From the NCBI GenBank assembly GCA_944391395.1, contig CALXTI010000001.1, positions 146,065-210,064 on the forward strand: a DNA stretch of 64,000 bases, read 5' to 3'. The position numbers were made by a program, and so were the translations under genes. The notes beneath the pieces are model-generated. The model worked only from the letters and a program-made list of their open reading frames with translations. It searched no databases and was not told the origin of the DNA. How positions within the stretch are numbered: the stretch's first letter is position 1; every line of letters begins with the position of its first letter. The DNA is from an uncultured Alphaproteobacteria bacterium (lineage in GTDB: Bacteria > Pseudomonadota > Alphaproteobacteria > RF32 > CAG-239). Of this stretch, positions 13,247 through 39,142 are shown piece by piece.

Positions 13247-13337
13247 GGATAGATGGCCGAGTGGTCGAAGGCGCACGATTGGAAATCGTGTGTACCCCCA
13301 AAGGGTACCGTGAGTTCGAATCTCACTCTATCCGCCA
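13247..13337 (+). tRNA. tRNA-Ser (anticodon GGA)
   Basis: 91 nt with long variable arm. Acceptor GGATAGA/TCTATCC, anticodon loop TTGGAAA, T-arm GAGTTCGAATCTC, encoded CCA. Confidence 0.85.
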
Positions 13338-13344
13338 TTTACAA

Positions 13345-13373
13345 GAAACCCCGCTGCAGAAGCGGGTTTTTTT
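13345..13373 (+). terminator. Rho-independent terminator after tRNA-Ser
   Basis: AAACCCCGCT-GCAGA-AGCGGGTTTTTTT. Confidence 0.65.
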
Positions 13374-13537
13374 GTAAATGATGAGGGAGAGTAGAGTTCG
13401 AACTCACGGAGTAAGTGAGTTTGACTTTCAACAGAAAAGCGGTAAAATTTTTTGCTTTGACTTTTGTAAAGTCAAAAAGTTTTTGTGAGGTTTGTGTGGT
13501 ATGAAAAAGCGCGGAATTTCCGCGCTTTTGAAAAAAA

Positions 13538-27400: not shown

Positions 27401-29634
27401 CCGGACAAAGCGCCTATAAACATGTTGCCGCTGTTGTGTGTTTCGCTGATTTCTCCGATGTTGACGTCAAAGACGCCGCCAGCCAAATTGTTGAGGATTG
27501 CAGCTCCCATATCGGCTTCGGCGCCGGTCAGCGTGCCGGCGTTGTTGATGGTGGAGCCATATGCCTCAATGTTGCCGTTAAGCGTTGCGCCGGATTGCAC
27601 GTTTAAGATGCTTTCACCAAGGTTGACGGAATAAAAATAGCCGCCGATTCCGGAAATTTGATAGTCGATGTTTGCGTATTGGTCGATAATTGAATGTTGG
27701 GCGACCAGACCGCCGGCAACAAAATTCGGGAAACTGCTTTCATAATACTGGCTGTTCATGTCCACATAAATATCGCCATGATTGGTAAGCTTCACGCCGT
27801 CAATTAATAAAGCCTGCATGGTGGCGTTTCCGGTCATGGTTATTTTACCGCTGTTTTCAGCCTTGATTAAAGTGCTTTCGTCTTCTTTGGAAACGTTTTC
27901 GCCTTTGTTAAGCACGCTTAATCCCATGGCACGGTAGCGGTCTCGATAAGCATTGACATCTTCATGATTGAGATTTGCAAAATAGGTTTCATCAAAACTG
28001 AAGTTAACATCTATGGCGCCGGAATTGTTAACTTCTATTTTATCAAACTCGTTTAACGGGATTGCCGAGACATTCATTCCCGCCACGGTCATATATTTAT
28101 CTTTTCCGGAAGTGTTTCCTTTTTCAATACGCTCATCGGTTGTCAGTTTGAGCGTAATGTTCCCCTCATTGTTCCAACTATTGATCAATTCTTTTTCAAT
28201 GTCATAACTGCGATGTAATCCGCCGGTCGACCTTCCGTCAAGCGTTAAGTAAATACCCAGGTTGGCTGTTGAGGGTTCAATATAATTATAGTCATGAGCT
28301 CCGTTAAGAGAATTATCTTGGATAACAAAGGTCGCCGTTCCGGTTAAGGTAATGTCGCCGGAATTGTAAACAACGCCATTGCCAAGCAGCATGATGCCTA
28401 TATTGTCCCGACCGTTCAGGTAAACCGTGCCGTTGTTTTCCAAAGTATGGAGGCTCTCCAGTTTGCTGTTTATAACACTTCCCAAAGTTTCGGTCAGAAT
28501 ACCGTAGCTGTCGTCTGCCGTGATGGTGATGGTGCCTGAATTTGAAATGGCTCCCACGCCGGAATCAATGCTTGTAAAAAATGTTTTATATGTGCTGGGT
28601 TCATGCGTTGCCATAATACCGACGCCATCGTATCCATCTGCCAAAACAATGTTTCCGGTATTGTCGACTCCGCCGGAGGACGCATATATTCCGCCCCAAG
28701 TTTCGCTTTTATTTGTTCCCGTGTTGGTCAAATTTTCAGAGTTATCGGTTCCGTTGTCGGTTTCGATGACAAAATTTGTTTCAGGTTCGACTTCGGTAAT
28801 GCAAGATTCACAACCGCCGCAAGAATTGTAACTTGAACAAACTTGTCCGGCGGTGCAGGTAAGGTCGGTGTAGCAACCTTCGGCGCAAGGGTTTTCTTTA
28901 CAAACATCGATTTGTTCGCATCTTTCGCAGCCGCCGCAACTATTTTGTTCGGCGCAAGTGTAACCTTCGGTGCAGGTAAGGTTGGTGTAGCAACCTTCGG
29001 CACAAGGATTTTCTTCACACGTTTCAACCGGCGGATCATTGCAGACAAGACAGTTACCGTTTTCATCCTCTTCGGCGCAACCGAATTCGCAGCTTAATCC
29101 CGGAGTTTCGGCCGTTTCATCACCACCGCCGCCGCCACCGCCGCCACCGTTTAAAAGTAGCGCTATGCCGCCGCCGGCAAGAAGCAAACCGGCCAAAGCC
29201 CATTTTTTGGAATTTGATTTTTCCATGTTATAAACCGGCGGCACATAATCGGCACTTTGCCATGTCGCACCGGCTTGCACGGCGTCTGATTCTATAAAAG
29301 CCTGATAATAGGGAATTTTCCATGTGCAAGGATGGTCAGGGTTGGCGCCCGCTTGACGGAAGGCATTATAAGCCGTGGCATTGCGCCGTTTGGCGGCAAC
29401 ACAAAGTCCCGTGTCGCCGTATGCGTTGGTGGCGTTAATGTTCATGCCGCGATGCACCGCTTCAAGCAACAATCTGACATCGCCTCTGGCCGCGACGGCA
29501 TACATCTCGTTAAAGTTGCGCGGCGCCAAACGATATGAACTCGCCGCCGCCGGCGATACAACCGTGCTGATTATCAGCGCCGGCATAAGAATAAAACTGA
29601 TAACTTGTCTGAAAAACCGTCCGGACATGATCAT
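24403..29634 (-). CDS. Large autotransporter (type Va) adhesin-like protein with repetitive beta-helical passenger
   Basis: 1743 aa. Sec signal peptide. An ankyrin-like repeat follows near the N-terminus (YGDTGLCVAAKRRNATAYNAFRQAGANPD). Hydrophobic plus poly-Gly linker, then tandem Cys-rich ~40-aa module. Dozens of GxITLTG/GxxxxGMYAxG passenger repeats. C-terminal beta-barrel ending ...YNAGLKYSF. Confidence 0.75.
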   Translation of the reverse strand: MIMSGRFFRQVISFILMPALIISTVVSPAAASSYRLAPRNFNEMYAVAARGDVRLLLEAVHRGMNINATNAYGDTGLCVAAKRRNATAYNAFRQAGANPDHPCTWKIPYYQAFIESDAVQAGATWQSADYVPPVYNMEKSNSKKWALAGLLLAGGGIALLLNGGGGGGGGGDETAETPGLSCEFGCAEEDENGNCLVCNDPPVETCEENPCAEGCYTNLTCTEGYTCAEQNSCGGCERCEQIDVCKENPCAEGCYTDLTCTAGQVCSSYNSCGGCESCITEVEPETNFVIETDNGTDNSENLTNTGTNKSETWGGIYASSGGVDNTGNIVLADGYDGVGIMATHEPSTYKTFFTSIDSGVGAISNSGTITITADDSYGILTETLGSVINSKLESLHTLENNGTVYLNGRDNIGIMLLGNGVVYNSGDITLTGTATFVIQDNSLNGAHDYNYIEPSTANLGIYLTLDGRSTGGLHRSYDIEKELINSWNNEGNITLKLTTDERIEKGNTSGKDKYMTVAGMNVSAIPLNEFDKIEVNNSGAIDVNFSFDETYFANLNHEDVNAYRDRYRAMGLSVLNKGENVSKEDESTLIKAENSGKITMTGNATMQALLIDGVKLTNHGDIYVDMNSQYYESSFPNFVAGGLVAQHSIIDQYANIDYQISGIGGYFYSVNLGESILNVQSGATLNGNIEAYGSTINNAGTLTGAEADMGAAILNNLAGGVFDVNIGEISETHNSGNMFIGALSGYESRPEYGTFVNEEGGVAEIGTLGSTEGHIADENKTGYLESVINRGTLKTYQIRTKEFENSGQIEAYYLSYYSYKDNGTVDLSNVHFKSIDSIINNTGGQHSVLQLNSRYQDNFIVGDITNVDQYSGTIYAERFPGGAVLHYTDWYNDEASADKRSSLSVNNIKALMHTLEESDDPQIKGLVIDRNYVDATLNNSIDIDYPDKIAGVQLNGQSVSFTNNGTIDLTGAVNLKGIESNGNGNTVINSSALNLTATETEGENQQSSKAFGIYLTGDAGGYNEGSITITGFADGVGIYAEGTSADGFENRGSINIDSENAVSMYANGSNHLSKLINKGTLEAQTENATGMLADGSLAEIINDFVINISGYMGIGMMGQNNAKLTNNGTISIDIKDGIGMYADSGQVINSSTGKINDRSAGASGRVGIYLEKTATGYNEGNITLIGDNQYGVYATGTGEEGFENRGSITLTGGKESTGMFADGYVDGVNDNYVKLINRGAITVSGTNAVGMYANGSKSVIVNQGTITVSGSGSQETETINGGTLSDDTESAGAQAFALTNGAKFYNLGVLEAEDSLNLDALADEKSKTVAGKNSIIKTGSVSGTLYGGADLTTGSNDDYYESRVIEAEENNATAASDSAMFAAEMIGDKIAMTRYDFNKLMANKNLASYLENNYQQGNRIDVFDTFKTAEDTTKLNNVVAETLGTNFVPAFAYQNFARLRHINRTMADLMQNNASEKDERVSVVSDNYYHDIKAHDGVSGYEERLFGFSGLFDKKINNNFRYGIGLGVYRVDTDFDNGVNRDDNLFEVYNPYWFDYERWGALIIPYVGFSDGDYERYDDAKKHTADLKAYYYGLNNRIYLKKQASGINIEPTAEINLSGMYQDDFAEDGGISVKAKNMFSAEAGLGAYLSKAADFGAKGKLNLKAGAMYYYELNDDAYQNINARFAGMNGLYEIAGYDNSRSRGVISLKTDYQFNGWNVYAEIMRLLEHNDNMVYNAGLKYSF

Positions 29635-35767: not shown

Positions 35768-35881
35768 GGCTTTCTCCTTTAATTTTATCTGAAGAATAAC
35801 AGAGTTTTTATGAAAAAGATACTAAAAAAACATTTGACTTCTTAAATAAAAAAGCGTATGAAAGTTTCACGATTTGCTTAT

Positions 35882-35955
35882 TGCTTTGTCGTCTAATGGT
35901 AGGACAGCGGACTCTGACTCCGTTAATCTTGGTTCGAATCCAGGCAAAGCAGCCA
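35882..35955 (+). tRNA. tRNA-Gln (anticodon CUG)
   Basis: Acceptor TGCTTTG/CAAAGCA, 3-bp D-stem, anticodon loop CTCTGAC, T-arm CTTGGTTCGAATCCAGG, encoded CCA. Confidence 0.8.
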
Positions 35956-35960
35956 CTAAA

Positions 35961-36316
35961 AAACCCTCTTTATGAGGGTTTTTTAGTGGCTGCTTTGTCA
36001 TTGGACGAGAAGCAATGTTCGGAATCGCGATGCCCGCCGGAAAATGTCGGCGGGCGGAAAGATGGCGGCTGCCTTTGGAAAAGGTCAGCCGCCTATCCAG
36101 GCAATTATGCTTGAGGCAAGTAGATTTATAATGAAACACAAACCCTCTTTATGAGGGTTTTTTAGTGGCTGCTTTGTCATTGGACGAGAAGCAATGTTCG
36201 GAATCGCGATGCCCGCCGGAAAATGTCGGCGGGCGGAAAGATGGCGGCTGCCTTTGGAAAAGGTCAGCCGCCTATCCAGGCAATTATGCTTGAGGCAAGT
36301 AGATTTATAATGAAAC
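35961..36316. repeat. Perfect tandem duplication of a 178-bp unit immediately downstream of tRNA-Gln
   Basis: Unit 1 (35961-36138) and unit 2 (36139-36316) are identical by eye. Each unit holds three perfect hairpins (AAACCCTC/GAGGGTTT; GCCCGCCG/CGGCGGGC; GGCGGCTG/CAGCCGCC) and an 11-nt inverted copy of the tRNA 3' end (TGGCTGCTTTG). With unit 1, the tRNA 3' end completes a 24-bp perfect palindrome. Confidence 0.85.
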
Positions 36317-36419
36317 GTTCTCAATACCTATCCGGTTTATTCCTTCGGCGGTATAAATTTCAACTTGAAAATGATTAAGCGACAAGCGTTATAGAAAATC
36401 AGATAGTTAAAGGTTTGTC

Positions 36420-36545
36420 TTGCAAAAAATGTAAATATTCACCATTTTATGTTGTAAAAAATGTAAATATTTGCTATTTTATGTTGCAAAAAATGTAAAT
36501 AAGCGCTATATTTATGTTGTAAAAAATGTTATTTCGCTCATTTGG
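36420..36545 (+). repeat. Four tandem ~32-bp direct repeats (TTG[C/T]AAAAAATGTAAATA...) upstream of the DUF4143 ATPase gene
   Basis: Repeat starts at 36420, 36452, 36484 and 36517, each with an 18-20 nt conserved core. They end 10 nt before the ATPase SD. Confidence 0.7.
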
Positions 36546-36555
36546 AGAAAAAATT

Positions 36556-37863
36556 ATGAAAAGAACTGTCTTTAACGGCCTTGTTAAATGGAAGAACAAG
36601 CCAAATCGTAAGCCTTTGATTTTACAAGGTGCAAGACAGGTCGGCAAAACTTGGCTTATGCAGGAGTTCGGCAAACAAGAATATAAAAAAACCGCTTATA
36701 TCAATTTTGATAAAAACGAAAATATGAAAAATTTATTTTCTCAAGATATGGATGTGCAACGGCTTTTAAGAGGTTTAGCGCTGGAATCCGATACACAAAT
36801 AACTCCAAATGACACATTGATTATTTTTGATGAAATCCAAGAAAATCCTAATGCTCTTAATTCCTTAAAATATTTCTACGAGCAGGTTCCGGAATATCAT
36901 ATCATTGCCGCAGGAAGTTTATTGGGTGTTGCGTTGACACATCACGGACAGTCTTTTCCGGTCGGTAAAGTTGAATTTATGAATATTTTTCCGATGTCTT
37001 TTTATGAATTTCTGGGAGCTATCGGCGAAGATGATTTTTGTAAGATATTAAAACAAAACGATTTTGAGATTATTAAGAGTTTTAAAAATAAATATGAAGA
37101 TTTTTTGCGGCAATATCTCTTCGTTGGCGGAATGCCGGAAGCTGTGGCTCATTTTGCACAATATCGTGATTTTAACGAAGTACGCAACATTCAAAACAAC
37201 CTGTTGCGCGCATACGAAGAAGATTTTAGCAAGCATATTGATAAATCCAATATCGCCAAAGTTAATATGATTTGGAACGCTGTTCCTTCGCAAATCGCTA
37301 AAGAAAACCAAAAATTCATTTATGGACAACTTAAAGCCGGCGCTCGTGCTGCTGAATTTGAAAATGCCTTAACGTGGTTAAAAGAAACCGGCTTGGTCTA
37401 TCCTATCACCAAAATATCAAAACCAGATTTGCCATTGTCCGGTTATGAAGACAGAAGTTTTTTCAAACTGTATATGTTAGATGTCGGACTTCTTTGTGCA
37501 AAAAGTTTGCTTCCGGCAAAAGCACTATTGGAAGGCAATCGTATATTTGAAGAATTTAAAGGCGCACTGACAGAACAATATGTATTGCAACAAATAAAAA
37601 CTTTAGACAACACTCCTGTTTATTATTGGACTGGCCGGACTTCTGAGATTGACTTTGTTATTCAGAAAGATGATTTCGTTATACCAGTAGAAGTAAAGGC
37701 CGGAATTAATCTGAAAGCACGAAGCCTGACAACCTATCAAGATAAATATCATCCTTTGAAATCCATTCGCACTTCTCTGGCTGATTTTAAAATAAACGAT
37801 AATTTATATGATATTCCTCTTTATCTTATTGAAAATCTAAATCAGATTATTGATGAATACTAG
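36556..37863 (+). CDS. AAA-superfamily ATPase (AAA_14 N-terminal domain plus DUF4143-type C-terminal domain)
   Basis: Walker A GARQVGKTWL and Walker B LIIFDEIQ, with a C-terminal DUF4143-like region. AT-rich. Start set at the ATG (36556) that follows the GGAGA SD. Confidence 0.65.
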   Translation: MKRTVFNGLVKWKNKPNRKPLILQGARQVGKTWLMQEFGKQEYKKTAYINFDKNENMKNLFSQDMDVQRLLRGLALESDTQITPNDTLIIFDEIQENPNALNSLKYFYEQVPEYHIIAAGSLLGVALTHHGQSFPVGKVEFMNIFPMSFYEFLGAIGEDDFCKILKQNDFEIIKSFKNKYEDFLRQYLFVGGMPEAVAHFAQYRDFNEVRNIQNNLLRAYEEDFSKHIDKSNIAKVNMIWNAVPSQIAKENQKFIYGQLKAGARAAEFENALTWLKETGLVYPITKISKPDLPLSGYEDRSFFKLYMLDVGLLCAKSLLPAKALLEGNRIFEEFKGALTEQYVLQQIKTLDNTPVYYWTGRTSEIDFVIQKDDFVIPVEVKAGINLKARSLTTYQDKYHPLKSIRTSLADFKINDNLYDIPLYLIENLNQIIDEY

Positions 37864-38183
37864 TGGTTGTTTCTAACAGATGTTGTTTTTTATGACCAAA
37901 GGCATATTACCTTTGTTTTCTTGACTTTGACGCGTGTCTTTTTTATCCTGAAAGCAGGATGGCCGGGTTGGCTGTCTCGGAACTAAACAATTCCTTGATA
38001 AAGCGTCTTATTGGTATGGGACGTAAAATTTTATGCCTGCCGGTCGAATGACCGGAAGGCGGTAGAATAAGCCTTGCGGTCAATATACCGCGCTATTTCT
38101 TTATCATAGTTGTTTACTTCCGGTCGCTTTTGAATTTTGAAAGCGATTTTTTTTAAGTTTCACTTACAAAAAGGAAGGTTACT

Positions 38184-38849
38184 ATGAAATATATTAATGA
38201 AAACGGCCGTTCCATGGTCGAAATGCTGGGCGTTTTGGCGATTATCGGCGTCTTGTCCGTCGGTGGTATCGCCGGTTATTCCAAAGCCATGAACAAATAC
38301 AAAATCAACAAAACCAACGATCAGGTTTCAATGTTGGTCGCCAACATCCGCACCCTGTTCTCCTCGCAGAACAACTATGAAGGTTTGAATAATGCCCAGG
38401 CGATTAAATTCGGTGTGGTCCCGAATGATATGTATGAATCAAGCACAAGCAGTACGGTAACTGTTGATGATATAAAAAATGCTTTTGGTGGCGCGGTCTT
38501 TATTAACGCGAGCGGTACGGATGCTGCGCATCTAACTTCGGCGTTTATCGTTGAATATCAAAACATTCCGGAAGAAGCCTGCGTCAACATTTTGACCTCG
38601 GACTGGGGTTCCGGTCAGGGGTCCGGCTTGATTGCTATCGGTGTTGAGGCAACTGCAACCGTTGCTGCTGGAGGTTCTGCTTCAGCGGGAGATTTGTTGA
38701 ATGATATCTATGTCGGCGATGCCGGTGCTTCCGGTGATGATGGTTCTATTGGTACGCCGGGTGGTACGGCACAGTCCGCACCGTTTGCGGTCAGCGAAGC
38801 GATTGATGCTTGCGGTACGGCTAATACCATTTATTGGAAGTACTATTAA
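38184..38849 (+). CDS. Type IV pilin-like protein (class III signal peptide, G/A/S-rich C-terminus)
   Basis: N-terminus MKYINENGRSMVEMLGVLAIIGVLSVGGIAGY, with the prepilin cleavage motif G|RSMVE (Glu at +5) and a hydrophobic helix. C-terminal low-complexity Gly/Ala/Ser/Asp region. Confidence 0.55.
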   Translation: MKYINENGRSMVEMLGVLAIIGVLSVGGIAGYSKAMNKYKINKTNDQVSMLVANIRTLFSSQNNYEGLNNAQAIKFGVVPNDMYESSTSSTVTVDDIKNAFGGAVFINASGTDAAHLTSAFIVEYQNIPEEACVNILTSDWGSGQGSGLIAIGVEATATVAAGGSASAGDLLNDIYVGDAGASGDDGSIGTPGGTAQSAPFAVSEAIDACGTANTIYWKYY

Positions 38850-39142
38850 TATAAGCAGGTTTTATGCTTAAAAGCGGCAATCCCTATAAGCGGCTTTCGG
38901 GCATAAAAAAACGAAAATATTGTTTCAAAGCGGTTCCCTAGCCGCGGCAAAATAATATTTTCCCCTAAAAAAACTCCCGTAACAAACGTTGCGGGAGTTT
39001 CCTTTTGCCCCTGCCGACCATCCGTTCGTTCGGTAAAAATATGACAGGGAAAAGAACACGGCTGTTCGGTGGCCGCCTGGCGGAAAACAAAAATTAAAGG
39101 CTTTTTGAAACTCAAAAAGCCTTTTCAAAATGGTTGAGCTTT

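Follow-up and report, generated by a model that had tools for sequence, protein, structure and literature searches.

Results

A tRNA-Gln gene followed by a duplicated unit

The DNA analyzed (hereafter, the window) is a 64-kb stretch from an uncultured gut alphaproteobacterium. An intact tRNA-Gln gene with anticodon CUG (CTG) and an encoded CCA end lies on the plus strand at 35882–35955, as called by ARAGORN and by the Rfam tRNA model (61.4 bits); ARAGORN reported three tRNAs and zero tmRNAs. Downstream of this gene, TRF delimited a tandem array (35961–36316; 2.0 copies, period 179, 100% matches, score 712), which repeat searching resolved into two exact 177-nt copies at 35961–36137 and 36140–36316, with the dinucleotide AC between them. 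Copy 1, counted with its AC junction, occupies 35961–36139 on the plus strand, and copy 2, 100% identical to it, occupies 36140–36316 on the same strand. An earlier reading of this DNA, made without database searches (the sequence-only reading), had described a perfectly duplicated 178-bp unit; both perfect copies were recovered, with the size corrected to 177 exact nucleotides at a period of 179. Accessory genes encoding a DUF4143 ATPase and a type IVb pilin lie downstream of the array.

Three perfect 8-bp hairpins per unit, as previously proposed, could be read directly from the sequence in agreement with the repeat search; one of them pairs AAACCCTC with GAGGGTTT. All features below are on the plus strand and are given for copy 1 and then copy 2. 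The sequence and the repeat search place a GC-rich hairpin A (GCCCGCCG-GAAAATGT-CGGCGGGC) at 36032–36055 and 36211–36234, and a hairpin B, formed by GGCGGCTG and CAGCCGCC with an inner CCTTT/AAAGG, at 36064–36093 and 36243–36272. An inverted echo of the tRNA 3′ end, AGTGGCTGCTTTG, was detected through exact matches on the minus strand (35985–35997 and 36164–36176). It is followed by the best-conserved segment of the unit, TCATTGGACGAGAAGCAATGTTCGGAATCG (35998–36027 and 36177–36206), which emerged from alignments and motif searching and is kept even in the distant unit of related locus L015. This segment may represent an ancient inverted copy of the T and anticodon arms of the tRNA or, alternatively, an attP arm; in a permutation test it gave z=2.9 for L015 and was not significant for the window. 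Near the end of each unit lies a direct 10-nt partial copy of the tRNA T loop, T stem, and acceptor start, ATCCAGGCAA (36095–36104 and 36274–36283), a feature absent from the sequence-only reading. The unit tail, TTATGCTTGAGGCAAGTAGATTTATAATGAAAC (36105–36137 and 36284–36316), makes up both the junction between units and the array's right end, and each tail includes a perfect TATAAT (36127–36132 and 36306–36311) with no −35 partner in the promoter scan.

Two minus-strand ORFs, 35867–36139(−) and 36085–36324(−), are mechanically present across the array. Their dismissal as translation artefacts of the repeat is supported, as they have no Pfam match and no gene is called at the locus in related assemblies. 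ORFs annotated across the array are very likely spurious, and caution is also warranted because contigs tend to break here.

A palindrome that reaches into the tRNA gene

Repeat searching confirmed a perfect 24-bp palindrome with the loop TTTAT (35945–35968 and 35974–35997), whose 24-mer occurs three times in the window as compared to zero times in 100 shuffles; the palindrome that had been proposed to join the tRNA 3′ end to the first unit is thereby borne out. Its left arm comprises the tRNA acceptor 3′ strand, GCCA, the trailer CT, A6, and CCCTC, and its right arm is the reverse complement. The core at 35958–35984, AAAAAACCCTC-TTTAT-GAGGGTTTTTT, consists of an A-run, a GC-containing hairpin, and a T-run, with terminator-like sites in the scan, and by sequence criteria reads as a predicted bidirectional intrinsic (Rho-independent) terminator. 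The terminator hairpin of copy 2 lacks the left-arm complement of AGTGGCTGCTTTG.

Among related loci the palindrome takes five sequence versions, four of which are perfect over 19 to 25 bp and reach 5 to 11 nt into the tRNA. The versions differ symmetrically (A6/T6, A7/T7, or A8/T8; CT/AG versus CC/GG; ACCCTC versus GCCCT), with at least four symmetric changes among the four perfect versions; L013 is a partial exception, with 7 A versus 9 T. This pattern fits template-switch conversion of a bidirectional terminator. The terminator hairpin has probably extended outward into the flanking tRNA 3′ end, making the inverted echo the outer part of the palindrome; selection on the stem, or template-switch conversion with the hairpin as template, would have kept the arms perfect. 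The description of each unit as containing an inverted copy of the tRNA 3′ end accordingly stands as to the exact minus-strand matches, and the copy is reread here as an outward-grown arm of the terminator palindrome. At present the array would serve, at most, to stop transcription in both directions between the tRNA and the downstream accessory genes.

Copy number, empty sites, and displaced tRNA repeats in related loci

Comparison of copy number in relatives, which the sequence-only reading had suggested, revealed variation from one unit (L006–L010, L066, and L067) through two (the window, L001, L002, L004, L055, and L065) to three plus one (L003 and L005). Two loci, L014 and L064, represent empty sites in which the tRNA-Gln gene is directly followed by flanking DNA. 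In L014, ProRS follows after 490 nt, indicating that the units, the ATPase gene, and the pilin gene are all extra in the window lineage. L003 and L005 share the order tRNA, three units, ATCCAGGCAAAGCAGCCAC, 1.4 kb, and one more unit. Here, ATCCAGGCAAAGCAGCCAC is a 19-nt direct repeat of the tRNA 3′ segment that begins in the T loop, and it sits where the window units carry only the 10-nt ATCCAGGCAA; the 64-kb window has no full displaced tRNA 3′ repeat, only its first 10 nt. Over 136 nt, the start of the 1.4-kb segment in L003 shares 75% identity with the DNA directly after tRNA-Gln in L064, and it also aligns with the corresponding flanks of L014 and L076, the four-way alignment having a mean column identity of 70%. 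A 227-aa lipoprotein cassette gene of L003 has homologues in varied contexts, often adjacent to tRNA genes, a distribution that speaks neither for nor against its being native flanking DNA.

The unit of L015 is shorter (∼117 nt) and is bounded by a 57-nt direct repeat, which likewise begins in the T loop. The tRNA acceptor stem differs in this locus, and the inverted echo in the unit tracks the locus's own acceptor sequence. Window and L015 units have conserved arms and a variable interior. Full-form unit copies carry terminal inverted repeats (AGTGGCTGCTTTG...CAAAGCAGCCACT), and the third unit copy in L003 is decayed, with broken stems.

Concerted evolution and a recombination breakpoint

The inter-unit junction AAACAC|AA(A/G)CCCTC is common to the window, L011, and L013, from species whose RNase D proteins are only 80 to 89% identical, and unit copies inside each genome are near-identical and share lineage-specific variants. 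A junction conserved across species together with identical copies per genome indicates that the array is old and homogenized. Of the very recent duplication or homogenization previously suggested, homogenization is therefore retained and recent duplication is not. Sequence identity between L003 and the window is 99.6% to the left of the array and 92.6% to its right. In L055, the 125-aa allele is only 67% identical to that of the window (P0005), and the adjoining units are 100% and 99.4% identical to the window units. The array thus marks a recombination breakpoint at which accessory surface-protein genes are shuffled between strains. Copy number probably grows and shrinks (from 1 to 3+1) by unequal homologous recombination while gene conversion homogenizes the copies, which would explain why the two copies in the window are identical even though the two-copy junction predates the species.

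Database searches

An Rfam scan of the region, the whole window, and the full-form copies in L003 and L015 returned only tRNA; sub-threshold matches were hairpin look-alikes such as miRNA precursors. No unit copy away from tRNA-Gln was found in the 64-kb window plus 510 kb of related loci (574 kb). An exact unit 25-mer was absent from viral contigs and GTDB representatives, a result that is weak evidence on dispersal since relatives carry variant sequences. The degenerate motif AGAAGCAANGTTCGGANTCG had 26 matches in JGI metagenomes, all in unrelated coding DNA, and none in viral contigs, and a 19-mer of the tRNA 3′ core was likewise absent from viral contigs. The region had no blastn match in phage and plasmid collections. 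Pfam identified no integrase or recombinase among the scanned subset of window ORFs on either side of the array, nor beside the L015 unit.

Several element classes were set aside on these data. A dispersed miniature repeat (MITE, REP, or Correia-like) is at odds with copies confined to the side of tRNA-Gln in the 574 kb scanned. An integron attC array was rejected because the scanned ORFs include no integrase and the unit ends, AGTGGC...GCCACT, are unlike the attC core RYYYAAC...GTTRRRY. A two-piece (permuted) tmRNA or second tRNA gene was rejected as ARAGORN found none and Rfam gave no tRNA-like match in the units, full forms included, and a retron or group II intron fragment was dropped because the defining partner gene or signatures are missing.

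Discussion

A probable insertion scar at a tRNA attachment site

The interpretation we favor, held with middling confidence, is that the locus is a non-coding array at a tRNA-Gln(CUG) 3′ integration hot spot and that the ∼179-bp unit is the remnant of a small insertion. Insertion at the T-loop-to-CCA segment of the tRNA would have left two att-proximal arms with nothing between them. The unit would then read, in order, as a replacement tRNA trailer and terminator, a conserved segment of ∼30 nt, two GC-rich hairpins, and a direct tRNA copy, the last of these marking the attachment-site half that was displaced; the unit would later have been turned into a tandem repeat. Together, the direct repeats, empty sites, and conserved flank form the pattern characteristic of insertion into a tRNA attachment site of the T-loop sublocation, with a distal direct repeat present in L003/L005 (19 nt) and L015 (57 nt) and the same flank found unoccupied in L014 and L064. 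Integration by tyrosine or serine integrases at this sublocation is exemplified by phage Ms6, whose attB lies in the T loop of a tRNA-Ala gene (PMC1762012), and involvement of an integrase at tRNA-Gln is likewise presumed. Among the three candidates raised by the sequence-only reading, an att-site scar is thus the best supported, resting on the T-loop direct repeats that bound the units, the two empty sites, and the flank homology.

Several observations sit poorly with this interpretation, among them the lack of an integrase in the scanned ORFs and of a full displaced tRNA repeat in the window. Just 10 nt of the core are present at the inter-unit junction, with a 35-nt tail after them, which is not a clean attP, and a circle of 179 bp is implausibly small as a recombination intermediate. 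The unit located to the right of the 1.4-kb segment in L003 requires an extra deletion or recombination step. Retention of the hairpins and the conserved segment at a distance of 64% protein identity, along with a small number of compensatory or wobble-compatible changes, leaves room for function, and an echo of tRNA-Ser elsewhere in the window suggests a possible replication-based process in which no integrase takes part.

Alternative origins and functions

Such a process, which we regard as unlikely but worth serious consideration, would begin with a template switch at the tRNA terminator hairpin to yield the inverted copy and a return switch to yield the direct copy (tandem-inversion-duplication), followed by duplication and conversion without a recombinase. 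The tRNA-Ser gene (13247–13337) displays the same direct-inverted-direct pattern, with an inverted copy at 13361–13409 (82–90% complementary) and a direct T-arm copy at 13415–13430 (81%). The symmetry of indels and substitutions in the palindrome and the lack of an integrase among the ORFs scanned are consistent with this origin, as is literature on the creation of hairpins by template switching and on arm homogenization (PMC8794818, PMC8604942, PMC5941160). There is also a weak resemblance between the left part of the unit and the tRNA body read in reverse complement (z=2.9 for L015; nhmmer E=0.047), but this resemblance is not significant for the window sequence. Treatment of the whole unit as a tRNA derivative was rejected, as alignment in direct orientation was no better than shuffles and in inverted orientation was marginal (L015 z=2.9, window z=0.8). 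Further against a replication-only origin, the direct repeats of L003 and L015 both begin in the T loop, a feature of repeats made by integrases, and neither the tRNA nor the window offers a source for hairpins A and B. Moreover, the L003 repeat stops at CCA+C and excludes the terminator, whereas a simple inversion-duplication predicts its inclusion.

Less probable still is that the unit encodes a structured plus-strand RNA, either a tRNA-linked small RNA or a tRNA-like module with a long acceptor-like stem, produced by read-through from tRNA-Gln or from the TATAAT of the preceding unit. The full form is predicted to fold at −75.4 kcal/mol (z=−8.7) with a cloverleaf-like four-way junction, and L015 retains hairpins with different sequences, one of them with a GAGA loop. 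In two pairs both partners have changed in a compensatory way (hairpin 1, G-C to G-U to A-U; inner pair of hairpin B in L011-type units, C-G to U-A), and six of eight single changes are wobble-compatible on the plus strand. However, double changes affect only 2 of 42 predicted pairs in a comparison comprising 10 closely related variants and L015, and the covariation term is only −0.76 kcal/mol. The unit has no Rfam family and no promoter-like site in or before it, begins directly after the T-run of the terminator, is absent from L014 and L064, and varies in copy number; its stems are broken in the decayed L003 copy, and the units of the window have only part of the closing stem. The earlier suggestions of a small structured RNA gene and a tRNA processing element find no support in these data but retain a small probability; the extended palindrome arm also lies beyond the T-run.

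We consider it improbable that the unit is an active, non-autonomous miniature integrative element, an attP-only relative of cis-mobilizable elements or MITEs that multiplies in tandem at tRNA-Gln with an integrase supplied in trans. A patchy distribution across lineages with empty sites, conserved arms around a variable interior in window and L015 units, and the terminal inverted repeats of full copies would agree with mobility, and att-flanked elements are known to accrete in tandem (PMC3146451, PMC5704250). The complete core is nonetheless missing from inter-unit junctions, no copies occur elsewhere in the 574 kb scanned, probes that demanded exact identity had no match in the viral, GTDB-representative, or JGI collections, and a 179-bp circle is sterically unlikely. 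Excision would be predicted to generate the circle junction ...CAGCCGCCT-ATCCAGGCAAAGCAGCCAC-TAAAAAACCCTC... A bolder form of this idea, to which we assign a similarly small chance, pictures the unit as a living integrase-less attP that brings its own substitute for the tRNA 3′ end and terminator. A recombinase specific for tRNA-Gln would mobilize the unit in trans, and its ssDNA or RNA would adopt a tRNA-mimicking cloverleaf closed by an acceptor-like stem. If so, no integrative element described to date would be nearly as small, and the unit could be a landing pad that captures neighbors, for example the 227-aa lipoprotein cassette of L003.

It is very improbable that misassembly produced the exact duplication in the window (identical repeats of 177 nt are longer than typical k-mers and many related contigs end at or near the array, but several independent assemblies contain arrays with SNP-distinguished copies, namely L001, L002, and L003) or that the unit encodes a small protein, whether a 38-aa ORF (36015–36131), intact in the window, L011, and L013 and tolerant of a +3-nt loop change but lacking its start codon in L015 (AAG) and frameshifted in the first L003 copy, or one of the minus-strand ORFs, there being neither a Pfam match nor, in related assemblies, a called gene. 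The copy number in the window could still be misassembled, as identical 177-nt copies are hard for short reads; the arrays themselves are real.

Significance and comparison with known systems

As read here, one tRNA gene hosts three stacked processes: site-specific insertion, tandem expansion and contraction with concerted evolution, and symmetric growth and maintenance of a palindrome. The locus illustrates how a terminator hairpin can incorporate the functional 3′ end of a tRNA with the gene undamaged, and the recombination breakpoint that it marks belongs to a lineage of gut alphaproteobacteria about which little is known. Greater importance would follow only if the unit were mobile or transcribed.

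The unit is most likely an undescribed variant of a familiar genomic scar, and there is no evidence that it represents a novel gene or system. Correia/NEMIS, REP/BIME, and ERIC elements are 100 to 200 bp, hairpin-rich, and dispersed in tens to hundreds of copies. By description, the unit resembles them in size, hairpins, terminal inverted repeats of full copies, and possible terminator or promoter activity; unlike them, it is seen only at tRNA-Gln and in tandem, with ends derived from the tRNA. Template switching is known to create and maintain hairpins (PMC8794818), and the long perfect palindrome, short loop, symmetric lineage changes, and outward extension of the stem recall quasipalindromes of this origin (PMC8794818, PMC8604942, PMC5941160). 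In the present case, by contrast, the arm duplicates a functional tRNA gene's 3′ end and begins a tandem unit, and the pattern of changes is what points to such a mechanism. CIMEs are att-flanked remnants of integrative elements without recombination genes (PMC5704250). The array is similar in its position at a tRNA hot spot, in its att-like repeats unaccompanied by an integrase in the scanned ORFs, and in that both can sit in tandem, whereas known CIMEs span kilobases with cargo and the unit repeats are incomplete in most copies. Dehalococcoides ssrA-GIs are tandem islands bounded by 20-bp repeats from the ssrA T loop (PMC3146451). Compared with such tRNA/ssrA islands, the units are tiny (∼179 bp) and geneless, have a junction core of 10 nt, and carry no integration module, with no integrase in the scanned ORFs; they nevertheless share with these islands an intact tRNA at one end, a distal T-loop-to-3′-end repeat, tandem stacking, strain-variable content, and empty sites.

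A tandem array directly follows tRNA-Gln

The tRNA-Gln gene (anticodon CTG; 35882–35955, + strand) is followed directly on its 3′ side by a 2.0-copy tandem array (35961–36316; period 179, 100% identity by Tandem Repeats Finder). A repeat search resolved two exact 177-nt copies (35961–36137 and 36140–36316) separated by the spacer AC, each with three 8-bp hairpins: the terminator core, hairpin A (36032–36055), and hairpin B (36064–36093). The sequence-only reading of this DNA had described a tRNA-Gln, a duplicated unit, three 8-bp hairpins, and an inverted tRNA 3′ end, all of which the analysis bears out; the duplication stands, while the 178-bp length given for the unit becomes 177 nt exact with a 179-nt period. 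Overlooked in that reading was a direct copy of the tRNA T-loop/T-stem/acceptor start, ATCCAGGCAA, near the end of each unit (36095–36104 and 36274–36283).

Neighbors of the array are housekeeping genes, with AspRS, RNase D, a cold-shock protein, and a 125-aa protein of unknown function upstream, and a 32-nt × 3.4 tandem repeat, an AAA_14/DUF4143 ATPase, a PilS/bundlin-type pilin, ProRS, and PheST downstream. The ORFs scanned around the array include no integrase or transposase. Judging by RNase D relatives, the host is an uncultured gut alphaproteobacterium known solely from MAGs.

The 32-nt unit (TTGCAAAAAATGTAAATATTCGCTATTTTATG; three and a half copies, 36420–36529), each copy of which resembles a −35/−10 promoter pair, sits immediately upstream of the ATPase gene (36556–37863). 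In two related loci (L051 and L057), one to two copies of this repeat are left and the ATPase gene is cut down to a few codons from each end. The L011-type lineage (L011:4463–5220; L060) has no ATPase gene, and its pilin gene and terminator are inverted relative to 38184–39007 of the window, directly after the units. From this inversion and the L051/L057 deletion, the tRNA-Gln–ProRS region has thus been repeatedly rearranged. Upstream of the pilin gene (38184–38849) lies a conserved structured leader (38013–38150, + strand), also present in L051, L071, and L073 and ahead of 226-aa lipoprotein-family genes in other species. In it, GACCGGAAG pairs at long range with CTTCCGGTC, and GCGGTA pairs with TACCGC in an inner stem; a third hairpin comes next, and then a terminator close ahead of the start codon. 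RNAalifold on four sequences gave 27 pairs, four with compensatory double changes; the leader has no Rfam match and may be a riboswitch or attenuator that controls surface-protein genes. Elsewhere in the window, a 52-nt direct repeat (28851–28902 and 28968–29019; 92% identity, spacing 117) within a 1743-aa autotransporter (BigA-like) gene is presumably an internal protein repeat.

The putative terminator palindrome extends into the tRNA

The tRNA 3′ end (CAAAGCAGCCA) and trailer (CTAAAAAACCCTC) pair with 35974–35997 around a TTTAT loop as a perfect 24-bp palindrome, and the window holds three occurrences of this 24-mer versus zero in 100 shuffles. Five sequence versions were found among the loci, four of them perfect over 19–25 bp and extending 5–11 nt into the tRNA. 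The palindrome has A6/T6 in the window (24 bp), A7/T7 in the L001 type (25 bp), a GCCCT/AGGGC stem in the L011 type (23 bp), CC/GG replacing CT/AG in L057 (19 bp), and A8/T8 with CCTC/GAGG in L051 (19 bp); L013, from a related species, is a partial exception (7 A versus 9 T). Terminators at empty tRNA-Gln sites are short and ordinary. Repeated symmetric change, as in these versions, is predicted by hairpin-templated conversion (PMC8794818, PMC8604942, PMC5941160), and selection on the stem would be equally able to produce it. Because the T-run of the core terminator comes first on either strand, the outer arm should seldom be transcribed along with its partner; we therefore infer that the core (35958–35984) terminates transcription in both directions and that the outer arms are a DNA-level by-product. 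In the event of read-through, folding predicts a 26-bp hairpin that would outcompete the tRNA acceptor stem.

Units vary in number and evolve in concert

Exact matches to the 125-aa and ATPase proteins led to 15 more assemblies from this species group. With exact counts uncertain in any short-read assembly, the window included, one unit is present in L006–L010, L066, and L067, two in the window, L001, L002, L004, L055, and L065, and 3+1 in L003 and L005. Copies in several arrays are distinguished by SNPs, and multi-copy arrays are therefore real. In L003 and L005, the third unit terminates not in ATCCAGGCAA and the tail but in a full tRNA segment (ATCCAGGCAAAGCAGCCAC), which repeats 19 nt of the tRNA in direct orientation, beginning in the T loop and ending one base beyond CCA; 1.4 kb with a 227-aa lipoprotein-like gene and its own terminator follow, and then another unit. 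The first 136 nt of the L003 1.4 kb share 75% identity with the sequence right after tRNA-Gln in unit-less L064, and its start also aligns with the tRNA-Gln 3′ flanks of L014 and L076. In L003, the units therefore separate the functional tRNA gene from a displaced 3′-end copy still joined to the usual flank.

This flank is conserved across species (L003:3847–5291, L014:8172–8330, the L064 upstream region, and L076:220–360; mean column identity 70%), follows both CTG and TTG isoacceptor genes, holds an inverted repeat (GCTCGRAKATG...CATCYKCGAAC) and the motif CAATAGCTTA, and may be an arm of a tRNA-Gln-associated island family. In L076, the flank precedes a 221-aa gene, an AbiJ-like gene, and the 226-aa lipoprotein gene.

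The inter-unit junction (…AAACAC followed by AA[A/G]CCCTC…) is identical in the window, L011, and L013, and the multi-copy state is therefore older than these species. Lineage-specific variants are common to the copies within each genome: both L011 hairpins carry the GCCCT stem, both L013 copies read GGTGGCTTTTTTG, and the window copies are identical. Within-genome likeness of the units is thus concerted evolution, not recent duplication; of the "very recent duplication or homogenization" proposed from sequence alone, the shared lineage variants uphold homogenization and the older junction removes recent duplication. The array further marks a recombination breakpoint: in L003, identity to the window is 99.6% on the tRNA side versus 92.6% on the ATPase side, and L055 carries a 125-aa allele just 67% identical to that of the window (P0005) beside units of window type (100% and 99.4% identity). 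The L055-type allele is linked with three different downstream arrangements.

The tRNA-Gln site in related species

One unit and a truncated second are present in the L011 type (RNase D identity 89%), at least two units in L013 (80%), and one in L051 and L057. The site is empty in L064 (125-aa protein identity 53%) and in L014 (RNase D identity 74%), where the tRNA is followed by 490 nt and then ProRS; because ProRS is so near tRNA-Gln in L014, the units, ATPase, and pilin are all extra in the window lineage. The more distant L015 (RNase D identity 64%) has an ∼117-nt unit between 57-nt direct repeats, which start in the T loop and span CCA and the terminator. Its tRNA acceptor stem differs (TCAAGCA), and the inverted echo of the tRNA 3′ end follows suit (TTGGCTGGTTGA). 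Conservation between the L015 and window units is confined to the left ∼50 nt (GAGAAGCAA[A/T]GTTCGGA[A/G]TCG); the right part is unlike the window in sequence, yet also forms two hairpins.

In L012:6001–13176, RNase D is joined straight to the region at ∼53.7 kb in the window, and in L051:1452–5321 and L057, the Zip/GatB region, at ∼22.5 kb in the window, adjoins the cold-shock gene. These large differences in synteny between close relatives could be real rearrangements or MAG mis-assemblies.

Origin of the unit

T-loop-anchored direct repeats in two divergent lineages, empty sites, a flank kept beyond the displaced repeat, and strain mosaicism are all tRNA-hot-spot signs. They match the known behavior of tRNA/tmRNA integration hot spots (PMC3146451, PMC1762012), and a site-specific-insertion remnant is therefore favored. 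We give an even chance to the full reading, in which a miniature insertion remnant at tRNA-Gln would have become a homogenized tandem repeat and template switching would have lengthened its terminator palindrome.

The main rival, origin by replication alone without an integrase, is unlikely but draws on tRNA-Ser in the same window (13247–13337), which is followed by an inverted echo (13361–13409) and then a direct echo (13415–13430) of the tRNA-Ser 3′ portion; an integrase may thus not be needed to make such echoes. This tRNA-Ser(GGA) has a 20-bp near-perfect terminator palindrome running into CCA (13336–13355/13361–13380), an inverted T arm/acceptor copy (13388–13409; 82% complementary), and a direct degenerate T-arm copy (81%), the same direct–inverted–direct layout as at tRNA-Gln. 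At tRNA-Glu (2867–2942), there is an ordinary bidirectional terminator only.

A functional + strand RNA is improbable. The unit folds very stably in structure prediction (z = −8.7 for the full form), as expected because the sequence is made of perfect hairpins. RNAalifold on ten unit variants gave 42 pairs, two with double changes (covariation term −0.76 kcal/mol), and of eight single changes, six leave a wobble-compatible pair on the + strand, a pattern that is a hint of RNA, not evidence. The small structured RNA suggested earlier drew no support from an Rfam covariance search, in which no family matched the window, L003, or L015 units. A promoter scan found no promoter-like site inside or ahead of the unit; a TATAAT in the tail is without a −35 partner, and a terminator comes at once after it. 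Each unit also holds a 38-aa arginine-rich ORF (MFGIAMPAGKCRRAERWRLPLEKVSRLSRQLCLRQVDL; 36015–36131 and 36194–36310, both + strand) whose ATG lies within the most conserved motif and whose frame stays intact in the window, L011, and L013 and tolerates an in-frame +3 loop change. This ORF was judged non-coding, as L015 is without the start codon and one L003 copy has a frame shift. The ORF-track proteins across the array are indeed very likely artifacts, being mechanical ORFs without a Pfam match where related assemblies call no gene.

A still-mobile attP-only element is improbable too. In a search for other copies, the unit profile matched solely next to tRNA-Gln in the window and 510 kb of related loci, and the sub-motifs are unique in the window. 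Exact probes gave no matches in viral contigs, GTDB representatives, or JGI metagenomes, nor did blastn against phages and plasmids. The unit is not an integron attC site, a tmRNA, or a member of any Rfam family, and over the window and the 510 kb of related loci it does not behave as a dispersed MITE.

Among known systems, the closest parallel to the unit is an att-site scar or a cis-mobilizable remnant with a quasipalindrome added. Full membership in the integrative-element class is withheld because the scanned ORFs yielded no integrase and the window copies carry a partial core only. Its unusual features are the very small unit size and a terminator palindrome that has absorbed the tRNA 3′ end and kept pace with it across several symmetric changes.
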